Shown one piece after another: positions 45,690 to 59,776 of a stretch of 63,599 nt of DNA (position 1 is the first letter of the stretch; the number at the start of each line of letters is the position of its first letter). Under the pieces are notes generated by a model. The model searched no databases. It was not told where the DNA came from and saw only the letters and a list, made by a program, of their open reading frames with translations. This DNA comes from a virus: IMG/VR virus record IMGVR_UViG_3300045988_069679, positions 1 through 63,599 of that record. One strand, given 5' to 3'. Made by a program: the position numbers and the translations under genes.

Positions 45690-46433
45690 ATGAAGCTAAA
45701 AAAACTTAATAAAATCAAGTTGCACACAATGACTGTGTTCTATGGTTTACCTGGTTCTGGAAAGTCAAGCTTTATCAACTCACTACCTGGTAGTGTATTG
45801 ATTATTGATACTGACCGTGGACTAGCTTCTGTGGAACAAGATGACCGTTTCTCTGTAGCTGAGTGTGCTAGTTGGTCTGACGTAATTGAAGCTCTTAGCT
45901 ATGCTAAAGACTTTGATAGTATCGCTGTAGACCACTTAACAAACGTTCAAGAGCTTTGCTACAAGGACATTATGGAATCTAATAATATCAAGAAAATGCT
46001 TATTAACCACTATGGTGAAGCATCTACTCGCTTAAAAGCCTTTATTGATGAGCTTGTGGACTTATCTTATCAAGGTAAGAATGTGTATGTAATTGCACAA
46101 GAAAAGAACTTGAACATTGAAGATGTAGTAGATGAGAATGTACCAGCACAGACTGTACCTAACCTTATGGATAGTGTGGCTAAGTACATTACAGCATCAT
46201 CTCGTATCATTGGTCATACAGAACGTGTGACTAAATCTAAGATTGTTAAGGGAGAGAAAAAGGTTAAGGACTTCTACCAAGTACGTCTTGCAGGAAATCC
46301 TATCTATACCCTTAAGGTAACTCGTAAGCCTGGTCTTACAATCCCTGACACAATGGTTAACCCTACATGGGAAGCTGTTGTAGGATTGACTGATGGTAGC
46401 ACACAAGAAAAAACGAAAGAGGTTAAAGAATAA
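45690..46433 (+). CDS. Sak4-like / AAA_24 RecA-fold ATPase (recombination)
   Basis: FYGLPGSGKSS Walker A, VLIIDTD; paired with a downstream SSB-like gene, as is usual in Gram-positive phages. Confidence 0.65.
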   Translation: MKLKKLNKIKLHTMTVFYGLPGSGKSSFINSLPGSVLIIDTDRGLASVEQDDRFSVAECASWSDVIEALSYAKDFDSIAVDHLTNVQELCYKDIMESNNIKKMLINHYGEASTRLKAFIDELVDLSYQGKNVYVIAQEKNLNIEDVVDENVPAQTVPNLMDSVAKYITASSRIIGHTERVTKSKIVKGEKKVKDFYQVRLAGNPIYTLKVTRKPGLTIPDTMVNPTWEAVVGLTDGSTQEKTKEVKE

Positions 46434-52372: not shown

Positions 52373-53331
52373 TAGCTGATTCCTCCTGCAAGGTCATTCT
52401 CTGTGCTACCATTGTTTGTTCTAATGAAGGCATCACCATCAGGAGTACCACCAAAGAGGTTGATATTACCTGTAGCAAGGTGTCTATTAGGTTTAAGATT
52501 ACCTTTGAAGATAGTATCTCCAGTTTGTTCCCAAGCTCCAGAGCCTTTAAGGTCTTCAAGTAGCTTAGTAAAAGCATCTTTAAGCTCATTGTACTGATTC
52601 ACAGTGACATAGTTATTAAGGTCAGGCTGAGGAATATCCACAGAGTTTCCATTAGAAATGGTTAGCCTATTGTTACTGATAGAGAGAGTCTGATTATCAT
52701 TATCCCTCTTAGCTTCAAGCACACCAAGTCTACGCTTAATATCTGCATCATTGTATGGTGTAGCTGTAGGAATATCTACCTCTCCACCTCCATTAGATAA
52801 TACAATCTTGTTACCACTCTTACTGATAGTTTGCTTATCATTAGGGAGAGTAACATTATTACCTCCATCAATGGATAGCACACGAGTGTTAGAGTTAAAG
52901 TTAAGGTTCTTACGAAGGATAGTATCATAGTTACCAATACCTTGTACTTTAACATTATCTCCACTAACCTCTATGATTTTCCAGATACCTCTATTGATAA
53001 CTGTTTGGTCAGCCCAATGGTCTTCTGCTGTGTCACCTACTTTAACTCCATCAGGGTTTCTAAAGTTGTTTTTCTTAACAGTGACTATAGTGTTTGATTC
53101 AGCTCTTCCTGGAATATCTCCATTGTAGAATCTGTGTGTAGAGCCACTAGGTAAGGCTACTGTGTTACCTCCACTAATTGTAAGGTTATTGCCATTCACA
53201 GACAATGATTGGTTATCCCTATCTTGCTTACTTTCTAAAGCAGTTAGTCTAGCCTTTAGTTGAGTATCATCATAGGCTGTCACAGTAGGTGTAGCTTGTT
53301 GTTCATTCTTGATATATGTAGTCTTTGACAT
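52372..53331 (-). CDS. Fibre protein (319 aa) with LTISNGN-type repeats and a conserved C-terminal NINLFGGTPDG...NDLAGGIS module
   Basis: ORF track; repeats NNLTISGGNTVALPSG, VLSIDGGNNVTLPNDKQT, RLTISNGNSVDIPQP. Confidence 0.7.
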   Translation of the reverse strand: MSKTTYIKNEQQATPTVTAYDDTQLKARLTALESKQDRDNQSLSVNGNNLTISGGNTVALPSGSTHRFYNGDIPGRAESNTIVTVKKNNFRNPDGVKVGDTAEDHWADQTVINRGIWKIIEVSGDNVKVQGIGNYDTILRKNLNFNSNTRVLSIDGGNNVTLPNDKQTISKSGNKIVLSNGGGEVDIPTATPYNDADIKRRLGVLEAKRDNDNQTLSISNNRLTISNGNSVDIPQPDLNNYVTVNQYNELKDAFTKLLEDLKGSGAWEQTGDTIFKGNLKPNRHLATGNINLFGGTPDGDAFIRTNNGSTENDLAGGIS

Positions 53332-54968
53332 TAGTTCAACCTCTGAATCTTCTCATATCTGTTATTGGTAGGGTTTTTAAGGTAAATACGGTTTTCTGAC
53401 GTTTGCATATAGAAACTTAAACCTGAAAGAGTTAGTGTGAGTTTACCAATAAGGGTTTCACCTTTTTTAACTTCAACCACAATAGGCTCTCCTGAGTCAA
53501 TCTCCTCTTTAGTTAGGAAGTGTGTATAATACTCTGTATGTGAGCTTAATTGTACACCCCAAACTAGTTTTGGTCTTATATTAATAACAACTTTATTATT
53601 AGAATCTTTCCAGATTGCAGTTATAATACTCTCAATTTTAATGTCCTTACTTAGCATTGCAAAGTTATTAGCAACTACAGTAGAAGCATCTGTTGAAGTA
53701 CCTGATATTCTAAAGTTATTCCCTGAAAAATCAGCGTTTGGTAAACCATCATACGTGTAGTTACCTGTGTAATTAAATACTATTCCAGCTTCTAAGAATG
53801 ACCCTGTTTGGGGAGTACCATCATTATCTACTGCATAGGCAATTCCATCTTTAAGACCAGAGTTATATCTTTTGTCAGGTGTAGCAGGTAATGCTCCATT
53901 ATTACCATTAGTACGGTAAGGACGTGAGACAATGGTATTAGTAGCCATATCAATACTAAAGTTATTATCACTATCAAGTAGTAGTCCATTACCTTTAGCT
54001 TTGTACTTGGTATCCTTATCCTCTTTTGCTTCTAGTGCATTAAGTCTATTGACCACAGAGGAATCATCATAAGGCTGTGTACTATTAGGTTGTGGTAGCT
54101 CTACCTCACCTCCGCCATTAGAGAGAATTAGTTTATTCCCTTCTTTTCTAATAGTCTGTTTGTCATTAGGTAGAGTTACATTATTACCATTAGAGATAGT
54201 TAACACACGAGAGTTATTGTCTAGTGTTAGATTCTGATTATCTCTATCTTGTTTGGCTTCTAAGGCATCAATTCTATCATATAGGGTCTTACCAGGGTAA
54301 GGTCTAGCTTCTAGGTCATCTAGCCTTCTCTTAACATCTCTATCATCATAAAGGGTATCCTTATCAGGTTTATCCTCTAAGGCTTTAACTCTAGCTTTTA
54401 AGGCTGTATCATCATAGGCTAAACTAATTGTGTCCTTATCCTCAAATTCAACCTCTTTAGGAGCACCATTCACAAAGGTATAGGTAAGCTTAACCTTATT
54501 CCCTTCCCTAGATACTGTCACACCACTCACAAAGTTATCAGCCTTATCTTCCACAGCTTGAATACGTCTACGGAGTTCAGCATCATTATACACAGTGTCT
54601 CTATCTTCTGGTAGGTTGATTGCATTACCATTGCTGATAGTGATTGTTCTACCATTGATTGAGAGGTTCTGTGTATCATTAGGAAGGGTTACTGTATTCC
54701 CTCTTGTAATTGTAAGCTCTCTTGTGTCATTATTTAATTCAAGATTCTGTGGCTTCTGTACCGTACCTCCAGCACCTCCCATAAGAATCCAATGAGTTCT
54801 ATCAGGAGATAAGGCATACATGTTTCCATCAGGAGTTCTGAATAAGTGGTCAAAGTCACCCATGAAAGGGTCAGGAAGACTATCCACAGGAGCAATCCAA
54901 GTGTCTTTAGGGTAAGTGCAATCTCTACAAAATGTATTGGGATTTCCTCCACAAGAATAACAACCCAT
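53331..54968 (-). CDS. Fibre / receptor-binding protein (545 aa); N-terminal GCYSCGG..FCRDC cluster, shared fibre modules, unique C-terminal domain
   Basis: The module NFVSGVTVSREGNKVKLTYTFVNGAPKEVEFEDKDTISLAYDD also occurs three times in the 1171-aa protein. Confidence 0.7.
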   Translation of the reverse strand: MGCYSCGGNPNTFCRDCTYPKDTWIAPVDSLPDPFMGDFDHLFRTPDGNMYALSPDRTHWILMGGAGGTVQKPQNLELNNDTRELTITRGNTVTLPNDTQNLSINGRTITISNGNAINLPEDRDTVYNDAELRRRIQAVEDKADNFVSGVTVSREGNKVKLTYTFVNGAPKEVEFEDKDTISLAYDDTALKARVKALEDKPDKDTLYDDRDVKRRLDDLEARPYPGKTLYDRIDALEAKQDRDNQNLTLDNNSRVLTISNGNNVTLPNDKQTIRKEGNKLILSNGGGEVELPQPNSTQPYDDSSVVNRLNALEAKEDKDTKYKAKGNGLLLDSDNNFSIDMATNTIVSRPYRTNGNNGALPATPDKRYNSGLKDGIAYAVDNDGTPQTGSFLEAGIVFNYTGNYTYDGLPNADFSGNNFRISGTSTDASTVVANNFAMLSKDIKIESIITAIWKDSNNKVVINIRPKLVWGVQLSSHTEYYTHFLTKEEIDSGEPIVVEVKKGETLIGKLTLTLSGLSFYMQTSENRIYLKNPTNNRYEKIQRLN

Positions 54969-55534
54969 TAGTTAATACCTCCTGCCAAGTCATTTTCAGT
55001 GCTTCCATTATTAGTACGGATAAAGTATTGTCCATCTGGTGTTCCACCGAACAAGTTAATGTTACCTGTGGCAATGTTACGATTAGGAACAAAGTCACCA
55101 TCTAGTCCACCTTGCCAAGCTCCACTAGCTTGTAAGTTATTTATAATCTTATTTAAAGCTCTCTTAAGCTTCTCATTCTCTGCTCTCAAATCAGCATCAT
55201 TGTAGGGTTGTGAAGGACTTGGAATATTCCCTGTAAAGCTAATAGTACCATCTTTAGAGATACTAATTAAGTTACCTGCTTTATAAGTAGGAGCAGTAGA
55301 ACCTCCACCTCCAGCATTATTAGCTAACCAACATAGCTGATTAGATACATTCTTATTGAAACACCACTGTGAGTAGGCAAACTTAGCTGTCTGGTCTACA
55401 ATCTCACACATTTGGCTATCCCTAAGAACTAGAGCGTGCATTTTAATTTTATCATCATTCTGTGCTAAGAGTGATTGGCAAGCTGTCTTACCAACTACTA
55501 TATCTTCACACTGACAGTTTACACAATCTGACAT
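54968..55534 (-). CDS. Cys-rich adaptor-domain protein (188 aa) ending in the NINLFGGTPDG...NDLAGGIN module
   Basis: N-terminus SDCVNCQCED..ACQSL...MCEIV...QWCFNK..LCWL. Confidence 0.7.
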   Translation of the reverse strand: MSDCVNCQCEDIVVGKTACQSLLAQNDDKIKMHALVLRDSQMCEIVDQTAKFAYSQWCFNKNVSNQLCWLANNAGGGGSTAPTYKAGNLISISKDGTISFTGNIPSPSQPYNDADLRAENEKLKRALNKIINNLQASGAWQGGLDGDFVPNRNIATGNINLFGGTPDGQYFIRTNNGSTENDLAGGIN

Positions 55535-56829
55535 TAGTTATCTCCTAAACAATCAAAATCACATGACATTAAGTCACATTCTTCTATAGGGGGTATAGGT
55601 TTTGGAGGTTCATGAAGGTCTACAGTTTCCCCTCTAAAGTTATTACCAAAGAAGTCCATTACCCAGTTACTTGGCTCTTCTGCATCACCATTCTGTTCTG
55701 TGGCATCAGGAGCACCACCTATAATCTCAAAATCAATCTTGGTAGCCACACCAGCCATAAGCATAGACCCTTTAGGTACAGATTCCTCATATTCATAGGC
55801 ATTATTGTAGGTACTCTTGAAATATGCTCCATCTTTTACAATATCAGCATCATTAGGAATACTATAGATAGTTTGGCTGTTATTAAAACTTGCTTTAAAA
55901 CTTTGCAACCAGTCAATATCACTGATAACCATTACATTCATAAGGTTAAGAGGTGCTCCACTATCATCAGTAAATTCAAAAGAACCTCTAACTTTATAAA
56001 TCTTATACATATCAAAAGATATACCACCAGAAGAGCTATAGATTTGTAAGTATCTATCACTAAGACCAGTCTTGTAGAAAGACTCTCCTCCAGCTTTAGA
56101 GAAGAACTCACTGACAGTTATTTTTACATGCACATTCTTACCAGAGGTAGTTCTAGCTACATTTCTTAGTGTGTAGGTTAAACCTGGAGCTAATTCACTT
56201 CCTAGGAATTTATGAGCTTTGTTATCTCTTCCAAAGCCTATACCTCCTACCACATAGTCCACACCCTCTTTAGAGGTTGCTAGTGAGAACTTAGAGTAGT
56301 AATCATAACTACCAGCTCTTGAAGGGTCAAAGTCACCAGAGATATAAATACCGTCTATCTCTTGCTTGTTAGGGTCATTCTTCATTTCCTCTAAGCGCTT
56401 CTTAGCTTTCTCTAATCGTTTGAGCTGTTCTTCATAGATGGCTTTAGCTTCGTTGTAGATACCTCTTTTATCATTAGGAGTATTAGGCTCTTTCTGCTTG
56501 TACTTCTTAATCATGTCCTTGTTACGCTTCACTGTGATTGAGTTAGCTTCAAGGATATTAGCTTTCATACAATGTAGGGTTACACACAGTGATTTAATCT
56601 TCTTCTGTAAACACACCATACGTTGCATTACATCACAGATAGTCTTGATAATCTTTCTTAATCTACACCAAAGCCTAAATACACCCTTCTGTGTATTAGG
56701 AACAATATCACACTGCTCAGAGTCTTTGATTATATCACCAGCACGCTTAATATCTTCTTGTGATTCATTTTTGTCACAGTATTTACCAGTGATTACTTTA
56801 TCATCACAACGACAATCACAAACGTCCAT
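55534..56829 (-). CDS. Cys-rich adaptor domain fused to a coiled coil and an adhesin/lectin-like domain (431 aa)
   Basis: ATG 56829 has AGGAGG 4 nt upstream. N-terminus VCDCRCDDK..YCDK...QCDIV...LWCRL..ICDVM..VCLQ..LCVTLHC. C-terminus ECDLMSCDFDC. Confidence 0.7.
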   Translation of the reverse strand: MDVCDCRCDDKVITGKYCDKNESQEDIKRAGDIIKDSEQCDIVPNTQKGVFRLWCRLRKIIKTICDVMQRMVCLQKKIKSLCVTLHCMKANILEANSITVKRNKDMIKKYKQKEPNTPNDKRGIYNEAKAIYEEQLKRLEKAKKRLEEMKNDPNKQEIDGIYISGDFDPSRAGSYDYYSKFSLATSKEGVDYVVGGIGFGRDNKAHKFLGSELAPGLTYTLRNVARTTSGKNVHVKITVSEFFSKAGGESFYKTGLSDRYLQIYSSSGGISFDMYKIYKVRGSFEFTDDSGAPLNLMNVMVISDIDWLQSFKASFNNSQTIYSIPNDADIVKDGAYFKSTYNNAYEYEESVPKGSMLMAGVATKIDFEIIGGAPDATEQNGDAEEPSNWVMDFFGNNFRGETVDLHEPPKPIPPIEECDLMSCDFDCLGDN

Positions 56830-56837
56830 AAGACCTC

Positions 56838-57200
56838 CTAGCACTTATCACAGCTAACCTCACAAGGAGTAACTGGTTGTTCTTTTAATACACTCAGAAC
56901 CTCTGCAATACTGTCATTCTGACATTTAACAGTACCACACAAGCTATCTACTTTCTTTTCTAAGCACTCTAGCTTTCTAATGATATAGCACAAGAAACCT
57001 ACAATGTTTTTGATTACACACCACACACCATAGAAGGCTTGTCTAATAGCTTCTTGAAGATTACACCACTCAGAGGTTGAGATTTTCCTCATTGCTGGTC
57101 TAATCTTTAGGTCATTTAGCTCTAGTAACTTAGCACAGTTCTCTGGTCTTGGCTCAACTTTCTCACACTCACAGTGCTTATTTAAACAGTTATCTGCCAT
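56838..57200 (-). CDS. Stand-alone Cys-rich adaptor-domain protein (120 aa, 13 Cys)
   Basis: ADNCLNKHCECEK..NCAKL...EWCNL...VWCVI..FLCYI..LECLE..LCGTVKC...PCEVSCDKC; Cys counted from the supplied translation. Confidence 0.7.
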   Translation of the reverse strand: MADNCLNKHCECEKVEPRPENCAKLLELNDLKIRPAMRKISTSEWCNLQEAIRQAFYGVWCVIKNIVGFLCYIIRKLECLEKKVDSLCGTVKCQNDSIAEVLSVLKEQPVTPCEVSCDKC

Positions 57201-57403
57201 TATTCATTCTCTTTCTTGTATGTGATATTAGACAGTCCTAAGACTGTTCCCAAGAATGTATTAAAGGCTGTGAGGACTACCACAGGGGTAGTCATCTCAT
57301 AACCTAATTGCACTCCTACCACACCAATAAAAGTAATGAAGGCAGGTAGCGCTGTAGTTGCTATAAATTTAGCAATATCATAATACTCATTACTTAATCT
57401 CAT
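57200..57403 (-). CDS. Small two-TM membrane protein, holin-like (possibly Dp-1-type holin family)
   Basis: 67 aa; TM1 FIATTALPAFITFIGVVGVQLG, TM2 VVVLTAFNTFLGTVLGL; charged C-terminus. Family assignment is from memory. Confidence 0.5.
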   Translation of the reverse strand: MRLSNEYYDIAKFIATTALPAFITFIGVVGVQLGYEMTTPVVVLTAFNTFLGTVLGLSNITYKKENE

Positions 57404-57418
57404 TTATATTCTCCTTGC

Positions 57419-57896
57419 TTAGTATGCTCTAGGAAATGTTACATTTGTAATTTCACTTGGATTTGTACTAGGACTTACTCTATGGTTTACATAACCTATA
57501 AAGCTAGAATTTTCCTCGTGTATAGTATTGACAAACTCATTACCTTTATGCTCAGTTCTAGTGTAAGCATAAACTAATACCCTAGTATCATTTACATCTT
57601 CATCATTATGTAAGTTTACTCTTATTTCTAACTTATCCTCTTCTGTAAGCACAGCCCTTATACTTAATAAATCAGTATTACATACATAAGGGATATTTTG
57701 GAAACCTATATAGGATTCATCAACAAAACATATAGGGTATAAAACTTTATTTTTGATTACCTCAAATTTTAATCTAAGGTAGTATCTATCCTCAATACTA
57801 TTTACAAATTTAAATAAGTTGTATTTGTATATTGGTATTAGTGTAAAAGAGTAAACTGTAAACTTTTCATGGGTTTTATATTTTTTTTTCAGACAT
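57419..57896 (-). pseudogene. Gene interrupted by an A9 tract. ATG 57896 reads 6 codons to a stop, and the +1 frame continues open into ORF 57419..57652. The restored product is 158 aa.
   Basis: Codon-by-codon translation of 57653-57898 shows no stop and no start codon. SD AGAGG lies 6 nt before the ATG at 57896. Span length 478 nt = 3n+1. Confidence 0.7.
57881..57889 (-). repeat. Homopolymer A9 (T9 on the plus strand) at codons 3-6 of the interrupted gene
   Basis: Read directly: ctgAAAAAAAAAtataaa on the minus strand. Confidence 0.95.
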
Positions 57897-57905
57897 ACTT
57901 AACCT

Positions 57906-58436
57906 CTAAGCATATAATCCAACAAAGTTGATAATGAATCTCTTACCAATCATAGCTTGTGTAAATCCTGTACTTCGTACCTTACCACCTCTATCCAACC
58001 AGAAAGAGATAGGTTCATTTCCAATGTACTGTTGAATCTCTAAGAACTCAATAGGAATAGGTGCTCCTGACGGTAATTCAGCAATCACAGCACTATGACC
58101 AATAGTACCTCTCACAAAACCGTCTACCTTAAAGATTCCAAAGGAGTTTACTGGGTTGTGAGATAGCACAGGAGGTCTATTATCATAGTTAAAAATATTA
58201 GGTACATTGAATCTACCACTATACTTTGTTAGTGTTTGTGCTTTCTTATTATTTTCAGCAATAGCCTTATCTACTTCACCCTTTGTGTAGTGCTTTTCAA
58301 AGGCTACATCAGCATTGATTGTGAATACCTCTTCCCCATTCTCTTGTGACTTAACCACAGTAAGTCCATCAGTAGTAGATTTTAGGTTGTAGAGTGTATC
58401 CTTATCTTCTAATTTATTGTAGTTCTTTGTTGTCAT
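57906..58436 (-). CDS. Receptor-binding knob candidate (176 aa), paralogue of 59381..59776
   Basis: N-terminus MTTKNY. The C-terminus GKRFIINFVGLYA parallels NRRMIINIVGLWSYTE, a C1q/TNF-like terminal strand pattern. Confidence 0.6.
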   Translation of the reverse strand: MTTKNYNKLEDKDTLYNLKSTTDGLTVVKSQENGEEVFTINADVAFEKHYTKGEVDKAIAENNKKAQTLTKYSGRFNVPNIFNYDNRPPVLSHNPVNSFGIFKVDGFVRGTIGHSAVIAELPSGAPIPIEFLEIQQYIGNEPISFWLDRGGKVRSTGFTQAMIGKRFIINFVGLYA

Positions 58437-58690
58437 TAAAGTCCTACTTTCTCTTTGATTCTTTCAATTTCAGCATCTTGTGTTTCTAGGACTAATTTAA
58501 GTTGCTCTGTAATTTGTGAGTTATTCACAGAAGTACCATTCACTCTAGTCAAGGTAAAATACTTATCATCTATCTGTGTTTCTTCATATTGATTGAAGCA
58601 AGTTTGTACAGTAGTGTGTAGTTCATTTACCTTATCCCACAGAGGTTCAAGACCTGTCTTATCTATTACTTTAAACTCTTTACTTGCCAT
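58436..58690 (-). CDS. Small coiled-coil protein (84 aa)
   Basis: ORF track; one-base coupling to both neighbours. Confidence 0.6.
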   Translation of the reverse strand: MASKEFKVIDKTGLEPLWDKVNELHTTVQTCFNQYEETQIDDKYFTLTRVNGTSVNNSQITEQLKLVLETQDAEIERIKEKVGL

Positions 58691-58691
58691 A

Positions 58692-59384
58692 TTATACCTT
58701 ATCTAACTTACCAGTAGGGTATGGGTCATCAGTGAACCATGAAGCACTAGAGAAACGTACATCATTGAAGGGTTCAGTAGGAATTACCTCATCAAAAATC
58801 AGTCTCATAAAGTTGGAATCATCAGTTCCTCCAACATACCAACTACCATATACCTTTTGTTTAGTTTGGTCATCTTGGAAAATCATTCCTTGTTGAGAGT
58901 ATGTAGCTCTAAACCCTTGAATAATATCACCTGGAACAATAATTCTACAACCTCTATCAGCTTGGTGATTCTGAGGAACATATCCTGGCTTACCTCTACC
59001 AACAATACCTAATCTACCAAAAGAACCACCAACTACTTTAAAGGTTACAGTATCATTCACACGTCTCATAGCAATATACTGACCTTTAGGTACACTTACT
59101 GTCTTCATCTTAACCCAACCAGTGTCACCTCGTAAGATTTTCCAACCTGTATTACCACCTTCTGATGTCTTTATCCACTTCACAGCACCATTGGTTACAT
59201 CTAAGTCGATATATGTAGTACCTATATGTCCTGTAACTTTACCTTCTGGGAATCCATGACCACTAAGCTCAGTAGGTAGTTCCACAGTATTACCATTACT
59301 AATAGAAAGGTTCTGACCATCTAAGGAAAGTGTTTGATACTCTTTTGATGGCCCTTGAGCTATATTATAATTTTTACTTGTCAT
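58692..59384 (-). CDS. Fibre / receptor-binding protein (230 aa)
   Basis: Start MTSKNY chosen by analogy (ATGA overlap). NLSISNGNTVELP repeat; GHGFPEGKVTGHIGTTYIDL..GAVKWIKTSEGGNTGWKILRGDTGW is typical of Gram-positive phage fibre proteins. Confidence 0.65.
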   Translation of the reverse strand: MTSKNYNIAQGPSKEYQTLSLDGQNLSISNGNTVELPTELSGHGFPEGKVTGHIGTTYIDLDVTNGAVKWIKTSEGGNTGWKILRGDTGWVKMKTVSVPKGQYIAMRRVNDTVTFKVVGGSFGRLGIVGRGKPGYVPQNHQADRGCRIIVPGDIIQGFRATYSQQGMIFQDDQTKQKVYGSWYVGGTDDSNFMRLIFDEVIPTEPFNDVRFSSASWFTDDPYPTGKLDKV

Positions 59385-59776
59385 TCTGTATAACTCCATA
59401 ACCCTACAATGTTAATAATCATTCTTCTATTGAACACAGTAGATATATCACCTTTAATATGACTAATCTGAACTTCTCTTGAATTTTTCTCTATGTATAA
59501 GGCAAAAGATACTTCTCCAATATTGACAGATTCTTCTATTAGCTCTACAGGAGTAGGTGTGTTTCCTTCAATTACACCAAGTTTTTGTCCACTTTGGTAT
59601 GTCCTAGCAAGAGAAAAATCGCATTTAGCAATGCCAAACCCTGTGGCATCATTGTAGAATAATTTAGATTTTCCAGCACTTTGGCTGTTTTGAAGAGTAA
59701 GTTCTGTATCATAATATGTTATATCAAAAGTTTTTAGAGTAGGGTCTCCATATTTAATATAATTTTTAGTTGACAT
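59381..59776 (-). CDS. Receptor-binding knob candidate (131 aa)
   Basis: N-terminus MSTKNY. The start codon abuts the (TA)10 tract and has no SD. Confidence 0.6.
   Translation of the reverse strand: MSTKNYIKYGDPTLKTFDITYYDTELTLQNSQSAGKSKLFYNDATGFGIAKCDFSLARTYQSGQKLGVIEGNTPTPVELIEESVNIGEVSFALYIEKNSREVQISHIKGDISTVFNRRMIINIVGLWSYTE

Follow-up and report, generated by a model that had tools for sequence, protein, structure and literature searches.

An A9 tract at the start of an interrupted gene

The DNA of virus record IMGVR_UViG_3300045988_069679, analyzed over its full 63,599 nucleotides (hereafter the window), carries on its minus strand a frameshifted gene (57419..57896) that would encode 158 residues if a run of nine adenines near its start were one base shorter. 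Its product is a near-orphan with a predicted all-beta fold, and the gene lies in a slot between a gene for a 176-residue protein and a holin gene. Translation from ATG 57896–57894 reads ATG TCT GAA AAA AAA ATA TAA, which specifies MSEKKI and then terminates at a stop codon at 57878–57876, such that the product of the A9 allele from the true start codon is a zero-frame mini-open reading frame (ORF) spanning 57876..57896. The homopolymer occupies 57881..57889 of the minus strand (T9 on the plus strand) and covers codons 3–5 (GAA AAA AAA plus one A); set beside relatives that carry A8, A6, or A9, it is a +1 insertion allele of A8. A Shine-Dalgarno sequence, AGAGG (57903..57907, minus strand), is separated from the ATG by the six-nucleotide spacer TTAAGT, is conserved in the relatives, and overlaps the TAG stop codon (57908–57906) of the upstream 176-residue gene. 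The original prediction, which a model had made from the letters of the window, described this ribosome-binding site, its spacing, the start codon, and the early stop, and every detail was verified on the sequence.

The body of the gene (57419..57880, minus strand) lies in the +1 frame, which is open for 153 sense codons from TAT 57880 to a TAA at 57421–57419, begins YKTHEKF, finishes NVTFPRAY, has no secondary lesion, and is conserved in both subfamilies of homologs. The two remaining frames contain 0.11–0.18 stops per codon, or one per 6–9 codons, and the 153 open codons are therefore real coding sequence and not a chance opening. Because the first 76 codons of the +1 frame (57880–57653) lack ATG, GTG, TTG, and stop codons, ORF finders give just a 77-residue GTG-started ORF (57652..57419), into which this stretch merges; the start-free extension that had been predicted upstream of that GTG is verified over these 76 codons. 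Changes in tract length have simple consequences. A run of A8 or A11 yields a protein of 158 or 159 residues, whereas A10 yields a peptide of 19 residues only, in agreement with the predictions that removal of one A gives a 158-residue protein and that a −1 shift gives only a short peptide. The A8 relatives encode the intact protein from the same ATG.

The tract had been flagged as the longest homopolymer in the window, and it is the single homopolymer of at least eight nucleotides there. Expectations computed analytically under a first-order model give ∼2 A/T runs of nine or more, so one such run is unremarkable by composition. Long A/T runs as a class are nevertheless depleted ∼3.5- to 7-fold, with 6 runs of at least seven observed vs ∼22 expected and 1 run of at least eight observed vs ∼6.7 expected, which leaves the A9 as the lone survivor. 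L001 and L002, homologous loci of 20 kb, likewise have no A/T run of eight or more except the A run at the gene start. A simple-sequence repeat, the A8/A9 run at codons 3–5, is found inside the very ORF that it would control. A second A run near a 5′ end was noted elsewhere in the window: an in-frame A7 (45698–45704, plus strand) at codons 3–5 of ORF 45690..46433 (ATG AAG CTA AAA AAA CTT), which is the gene for a Sak4-like single-stranded DNA-annealing protein (phrog_124, E 1e-36).

Tract states among relatives

Homologs were sought in 5.8 billion clusters and 1.84 billion representatives, with ∼15 billion proteins behind the allele count, and P0001 and the exact +1-frame translation served as queries for the structure and representative searches. 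Every relative found came from the ENA/Logan protein index. DNA searches with the locus (megablast and blastn) and tblastn produced no match in 50,697 phage records; scans for the locus and for its DNA pattern in IMG/VR viral contigs, JGI metagenome contigs, and GTDB genomes recovered no relatives; and the repaired protein matches nothing in Pfam, in PHROGs, or among cultured phages.

The homologs fall into two small groups, a 158-residue and a 143-residue subfamily, that are ∼45% identical. Cluster listings give 13 distinct alleles, of which 8 are full-length (P0001, P0002, P0006, P0007, P0024, P0025, P0027, and P0029) and 5 are truncated calls, namely the 77-residue ORF of the window, P0005 (119 residues), and P0023, P0026, and P0028 (116 residues each). 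Three of the five truncated alleles were verified at the DNA level, and all three are A9. At this level, the tract is A8 and in frame in L001, L002, L010, L011, and L035; it is A6 and in frame in L008 and L009, where the GAA codon is absent and the product has 157 residues; and it is A9 in the window, in L006/L007/L025, and in L032/L033/L034, where frame 0 stops after MSEKKI or MAEKKI and the +1 frame is fully open. The product of an A8 allele is thus 158 or 143 residues long, depending on the subfamily, and that of an A9 allele is a peptide of six residues. The Shine-Dalgarno sequence and the ATG are conserved in all DNA-level relatives, and no truncated allele contains a stop or an indel beyond the tract.

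An alignment of 12 sequences contains 46 invariant residues across positions 36–141, including the stretch that is encoded upstream of GTG 57652, and residues 36–81 are conserved between the 158- and 143-residue subfamilies. Because residues upstream of the GTG are conserved across subfamilies, ATG 57896 is the true start. The GTG at 57652 was considered as a start and rejected as an artifact of ORF finding. The locus is mis-annotated in this manner, with gene callers returning fragments of 77, 116, or 119 residues that have spurious GTG or TTG starts. The original prediction had pointed to related phages as the place to look for variation in tract length, and A6, A8, and A9 are all found there; the relatives are not uniformly A9, and the homologs start at the ATG rather than at the equivalent of GTG 57652. 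Apart from the tract, L002 (10001–10474) stands out by 30 nt inserted in frame near the C-terminus (VSHTVDNNEE) and by a G-to-T substitution whose early TAA removes the last 11 residues.

Recurrence of A9 across samples and lineages

The sequence of the window matches the ENA scaffold ZHAN15-1_SAMEA2737921_METAG-scaffold_166, which derives from the human oral metagenome project PRJEB6997 (Illumina), at 100% over the 14.2 kb compared. A circularly permuted contig from the same project (ERR589454 k127_24355, 63,536 nt) agrees with the window at 100% over 20.5 kb, A9 included, and its sample may be the same as that of the window. The A9 recurs across samples, studies, assemblers (SPAdes, MEGAHIT-style k141, and Logan), and three genetic backgrounds, and A8 was called in other samples of the same studies, so there is no systematic bias toward A9. 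According to the contig names, the A9 genomes were assembled at 9–19x k-mer coverage. One circular SPAdes contig, ERZ21615897 NODE_226 (64,518 nt, with L026 at its end and L007 at its start), has a 55-nt overlap (...ATGTCTGAAAAAAAAA) whose end coincides precisely with the final A of the tract. The position of this cut may be a sign that the assembly graph forked at the homopolymer, through either biological heterogeneity or read noise.

The flanking sequences place the A9 alleles on different backgrounds. Over 3 kb of flanks, the A9 genome L006 is 99.5–99.7% identical to the A8 genomes L001 and L010, vs ∼95–97% to the window. Within the 143-residue subfamily, L032–L034 are A9 and their relative L035 is A8, and the genomes nearest to L032 are A8 or carry another family at this position. 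In neighbor-joining trees of the 176-residue gene, of the holin and 120-residue genes, and of the two sets combined, three separate clades contain the window, L006, and L032/L034, respectively, and each of these three A9 lineages has A8 neighbors in the flank trees. Because the three lineages sit in separate clades, the 9 DNA-verified haplotypes require at least three independent ±1 events, and the in-frame A6 variant comes on top of these. When the most similar genomes are compared in pairs, no single-base indel other than that in the tract is left uncompensated. A9 strains are also found more than once: L025 is 100% identical to L024 and to the contig of L006 from another sample, and L032 and L034 have 1 difference in 2355 nt.

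A fast-evolving gene in an exchangeable slot

The ratio of nonsynonymous to synonymous substitution rates (dN/dS) in the 158-residue subfamily is 0.8–2.6, vs 0.06–0.13 for the flanking 176- and 120-residue genes and 0.2–0.4 for the holin, and dS is higher in these flanks than in the slot gene. The window differs from L001 at 3 synonymous and 17 nonsynonymous sites, and in the C-terminal half the counts are 0 and 11. All differences seen in the C-terminal half of the repaired gene are nonsynonymous (0 vs 10–11). This half contains a hypervariable patch at residues 122–127 (window ∼57519–57536) that reads VNTIHE, SCIINK, SYSINK, SYNINK, or GNTIYE and that varies even between genomes otherwise >99.5% identical.

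The slot between the 176/177-residue gene and the holin holds at least four mutually unrelated allele families, of 158/143, 133/134, 156, and 154 residues, as read in the window and in loci L012–L021 and L027–L031. The sole common feature is an N-terminal M-x-x-K-[KL]-Y motif. That these families might be divergent versions of one domain was considered and rejected, as hhalign homology is absent beyond the first 6–9 residues. An A run without a break encodes Lys-Lys in the 158/143 family alone; the corresponding codons are AAG AAA in the 133- and 156-residue families, and the 154-residue family has Lys-Leu. Between its conserved flanks, the slot has the appearance of a site of cassette exchange.

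Inactivated alleles are also present in the 133/134-residue family, which lacks the tract. A 2-nt deletion at codon ∼12 is carried by L017 and L021 (∼2120) and changes GTTAAAGGTAAT to GTTAAATAAT. Mid-gene frameshifts occur in P0039 and P0064, further truncated calls are P0056 and P0058, and the ATG is lost in P0043, P0059, and P0060 (M to I or R, with callers extending upstream). The dN/dS of 0.8–2.6, the swapping of at least four families, and the knock-out of alleles without a tract together suggest that the gene is conditionally dispensable. Loss of the slot gene is generally tolerated or favored, and the tract would concentrate losses on one reversible site.

Structure prediction gave only a marginal model of the product. 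From 12 sequences, AF2 returned an all-beta domain of about nine strands (pLDDT 58.8, pTM 0.56); a model from 3 sequences (pLDDT 48) was not used. Foldseek searches with the marginal model produced weak, generic Ig-like matches with TM scores of 0.45 or below, the top viral one being an uncharacterized protein of Streptococcus phage SOCP. Such a model would be compatible with a binding or decoration domain, or with a protein that is recognized by host defense.

A candidate slippage contingency locus

We favor, with a probability of about 0.62, a reading in which the A run at codons 3–5 is a slipped-strand hot spot of the contingency type and the window holds its OFF allele. In such a locus, A8 would be the in-frame ON allele that directs synthesis of the 158-residue protein, and the run would gain or lose an A during replication of the phage DNA. 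The resulting A9 would be a heritable OFF state in which ribosomes that start at ATG 57896 terminate after six codons, leaving little or no full-length protein. Because the lesion is one base in a long run, frequent reversion would be possible; lineages would flip between A8 and A9, and selection during ON phases would preserve the remainder of the ORF. The gene itself would be a late one that evolves fast and is conditionally dispensable, and its exchangeable slot closes the tail-fiber region just ahead of the holin; the OFF state would be tolerated and probably sometimes favored. We infer replication slippage as the cause of the length changes, and likewise their reversibility and any advantage of being OFF. 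The bodies of the OFF alleles, all of them intact, are compatible with a recent origin as well as with frequent reversion under intermittent selection. The on/off switch that was originally predicted has gained from the A6/A8/A9 polymorphism, the presence of A9 on at least three backgrounds, and the otherwise intact ORF; the associated role in host recognition is suggested for the product by its position only.

Several points weigh against a contingency locus. The verified breaks are all +1 (3/3 A9), and none of the A7 and A10 alleles that are expected from unbiased slippage was seen among them. P0026 and P0028, which are truncated at the level of protein calls, are putative members of this class. 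Recombination of short patches could give the appearance of independent events, and the flanks are clearly mosaic. Reversion of A9 to A8 would have to be read from the phylogenetic pattern, and the argument is built on assembled contigs. The conservation of the tract between subfamilies may follow from where it lies, inside the conserved left flank of the cassette, and need not denote a selected switch, and AAA codons are generally preferred near starts (PMC2831843), which provides an alternative source of that conservation. The truncated fraction is 5/13 in the tract family vs 5/37 listed alleles of the 133/134-residue family (one-sided Fisher p = 0.067; 8/37 if start-loss alleles are counted). 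The fraction is not significantly higher in the tract family, and frequent loss is therefore a property of the slot gene and not of the tract alone.

Alternative explanations

The run may be no more than the likeliest site for a dispensable gene to break, in which case the A9 alleles would be dead ends on the way to decay or to replacement of the cassette. We consider such non-adaptive pseudogenization unlikely, although it would readily accommodate a near-orphan gene with dN/dS near 1 or higher, the inactivation of tract-less alleles in the same slot by a 2-nt deletion, frameshifts, and start loss, the lack of a significant difference in truncated fraction between families, and the wholesale replacement of the slot by unrelated cassettes. 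It is harder to reconcile with the five truncated alleles, each otherwise intact over 143–153 AT-rich codons where the off-frames stop every 6–9 codons. The 46 invariant residues kept by two subfamilies that are 45% identical argue for long-term purifying selection on the core, and the dS of the gene is lower than that of its neighbors, unlike what would be expected of an old pseudogene. Moreover, a one-base change in an A9 run is intrinsically reversion-prone (PMC2831843; bioRxiv 10.1101/2025.10.21.683753).

The A9 allele could also still be expressed, through slippage of host RNA polymerase on the T9 template (to give A8 or A11 mRNA) or a +1 slip of tRNA-Lys on A AAA AAA A, with tract length setting the level of the product (high for A8 and low for A9). 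Transcriptional slippage is known to rescue interrupted genes, as in the A9 of Thermus thermophilus dnaX and in insertion sequence (IS) elements (PMC1088944) and in the A11 of C. rodentium tssM, which is rescued at ∼20% (PMC4256274). Nine A/T is the length at which such slippage becomes significant in many bacteria, and the A9 in the sense strand meets this threshold of ∼9 (PMC1088944). The layout is similar in that an A run of at least nine immediately precedes a premature stop with the continuation open in another frame. The verified broken alleles are 3/3 A9 and never A7 or A10, their ORF is intact in each case, and the run is followed in the zero frame by ATA, the least used Ile codon of the late genes (6.3 vs 29.7 per 1000 for ATT), and then directly by the stop. 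Of the features of a prfB-type shift, AAA-A permits perfect re-pairing of tRNA-Lys, and the candidate slow codon in the A site is ATA, not a stop.

Other observations make recoding distinctly improbable. In the known systems, the out-of-frame layout is conserved and both products matter; here, 8/13 alleles are plainly in frame, in-frame A8 alleles form the majority of each subfamily, and the frameshifted layout is not conserved. RNA structure around the tract is unremarkable (z-scores −1.2 to +1.3), with none conserved between subfamilies, and the search for a prfB-type stimulator around the tract revealed no significant or conserved structure and no Shine-Dalgarno sequence except that of the gene itself, well upstream of the shift site. 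A dedicated recoding stimulator was rejected after this search. Repair of the frame needs −1 or +2 nt in the mRNA, the direction that is disfavored for poly(A) with bacterial RNA polymerase, and with the Escherichia coli enzyme, slippage was undetectable on runs shorter than A8 and none of the poly(A) runs assayed was rescued by deletion (PMC6260861). Among the long ORFs scanned, none was recognized as a phage RNA polymerase. The +1 ribosomal or transcriptional recoding that had been offered as an option for this tract has accordingly lost ground. A combined scheme, which we regard as doubtful but slightly less so, is that the locus is a heritable dimmer as well as a switch, in which A9 genomes would make a few per cent of full-length protein by slippage of RNA polymerase or tRNA-Lys; high (A8) and low (A9) subpopulations would then coexist for a fast-evolving late protein that may be a host-range accessory or a defense trigger.

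By far the least credible account is the one the original prediction had kept in reserve, that the true genome is A8 and the extra A a sequencing or assembly error: homopolymers are the classic site of indel errors and NODE_226 breaks exactly at the tract, so that assemblers had some ambiguity there, but the reads are short Illumina ones, the A9 is identical in two different assemblies, and the same length returns in other samples, studies, and lineages alongside A8 from the same studies.

Neighboring genes and genomic context

The left flank of the slot is the 3′ end of the conserved gene for the 176-residue protein (57906..58436, minus strand), and the right flank is a Dp-1-type holin gene with its own Shine-Dalgarno sequence (57200..57403, minus strand; PF16938 E 3e-14, phrog_881 E 7e-23). 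The holin-like label of the original prediction is borne out by these family matches; no family search backs its label of a receptor-binding knob for the other neighbor, although the context of the module fits host recognition. The 176-residue protein is paralogous to a 131-residue protein (59381..59776), with an hhalign probability of 96% and a shared C-terminal IINxVGL motif. The N-termini of three proteins encoded on the minus strand are MTTKNYNKL (176 residues), MSTKNYIKY (131 residues), and (MELYR)MTSKNYNIA (235 residues; 58692–59399), and their M-[ST]-x-K-N-Y motif is the same as in the slot proteins. It may represent a docking peptide or a recombination junction.

The 235-residue protein, two genes upstream, is 41–47% identical to the C-termini of annotated tail-fiber proteins from prophages of S. 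mitis, S. pneumoniae, and S. parasanguinis, and relatives of the virus encode a choline-binding amidase. Because of these two features, the host is very probably a mitis-group Streptococcus. The module appears to be devoted to host recognition and to continue into the lysis genes, and the holin sits amid fibre-like genes. Four consecutive proteins after the holin (53331–57200, minus strand), of 120, 436, 188, and 545 residues, have Cys-rich N-termini (MADNCLNKHCECEK, MDVCDCRCDDK, MSDCVNCQCED, and MGCYSCGGNPNTFCRDC) and coiled-coil or repeat bodies without family assignment. In some relatives, a 290-residue protein with a BspA_v domain takes the place of the 120-residue gene.

The genome is complete at ∼63.5 kb, assembles circularly with a terminal overlap of ∼55 nt, and is of virulent type, with its own DNA polymerase and primase-helicase as well as terminase, portal, and tail genes. 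The best cultured-phage matches of the portal, in the Lactococcus P087-like group, are only 23% identical to it, and neither 57200–58500 nor 40000–63599 has a DNA match in the 50,697 phage records. The holin protein is present in 252 blocks of the assembly collection, and the lineage, an uncultured one, is thus apparently common in human oral metagenomes.

Comparison with known systems and implications

The closest bacterial parallel is the 5′ poly(A) of L. monocytogenes inlA, where frameshifts leave an 8-residue product, variation is elevated ∼1000-fold, and at least two independent origins are recorded (Orsi, Bowen & Wiedmann 2010, PMC2831843). In both cases the poly(A) run is found among the earliest codons of the gene, only a peptide of a few residues (8 in inlA, 6 here) is left when the run changes by ±1, and independent frameshifts are found in natural strains; in inlA they are read as an efficient, reversible inactivation. 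The two differ in that inlA is a bacterial surface-protein gene whose mutation frequency was measured (∼1000 times the point-mutation rate), whereas the present locus belongs to a phage, is known from sequence comparison, and has a longer tract (A8/A9).

Among phages, the T2 agt tract (bases 288–296) and the T4 rIIA A6 are experimentally reversible contingency loci in which ±1 null alleles revert 1000- to 10,000-fold faster than single-nucleotide polymorphisms; the OFF state helps against some host defenses and costs against others, and simple-sequence repeats are enriched in hypothetical and accessory genes (Gomez, Barrick & Waters, bioRxiv 10.1101/2025.10.21.683753). The likeness is an A run inside a non-essential phage ORF. 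Those loci were characterized by experiments with cultured coliphages, whereas the evidence here is comparative and drawn from metagenomes with uncultured oral Streptococcus phages; the present tract also differs in lying right at the 5′ end of its gene, in a genome that avoids long runs and has no other. Hypermutable poly-G tracts in receptor-binding genes of Campylobacter phages, several per genome and with a demonstrated effect on receptor usage, are reportedly the subject of work by Sorensen and colleagues in Cell Rep in 2021. As in those phages, a homopolymer in a late, host-recognition-module gene would give rise to ON and OFF subpopulations, but they have several G tracts against a single A tract here, and a receptor-binding role of the protein is putative in the present case. 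The interrupted genes that are rescued by transcriptional slippage differ further, in that no stimulatory element was found here, the required shift is in the less favored direction for poly(A), and most homologs are in frame.

Homopolymer contingency loci of phages have been shown experimentally only recently, in T2/T4 and in Campylobacter phages, and the present locus provides population-level evidence from human oral metagenomes. The kind of on/off switch is already known; what the locus adds is an example from natural populations, with repeated flips and OFF strains that recur across samples. Homopolymer frameshifts in metagenome-assembled phages should therefore not be corrected automatically as errors. 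If the A9 allele does act as a dimmer, bet-hedging would be visible directly in human-associated phage populations and not in laboratory coliphages. Because of the cassette swapping, the dN/dS near 1 or higher, and the knock-outs by many routes, the slot before the holin is a candidate hot spot of host–phage conflict, and a host-range factor or a trigger of host defense is a plausible identity for its product.

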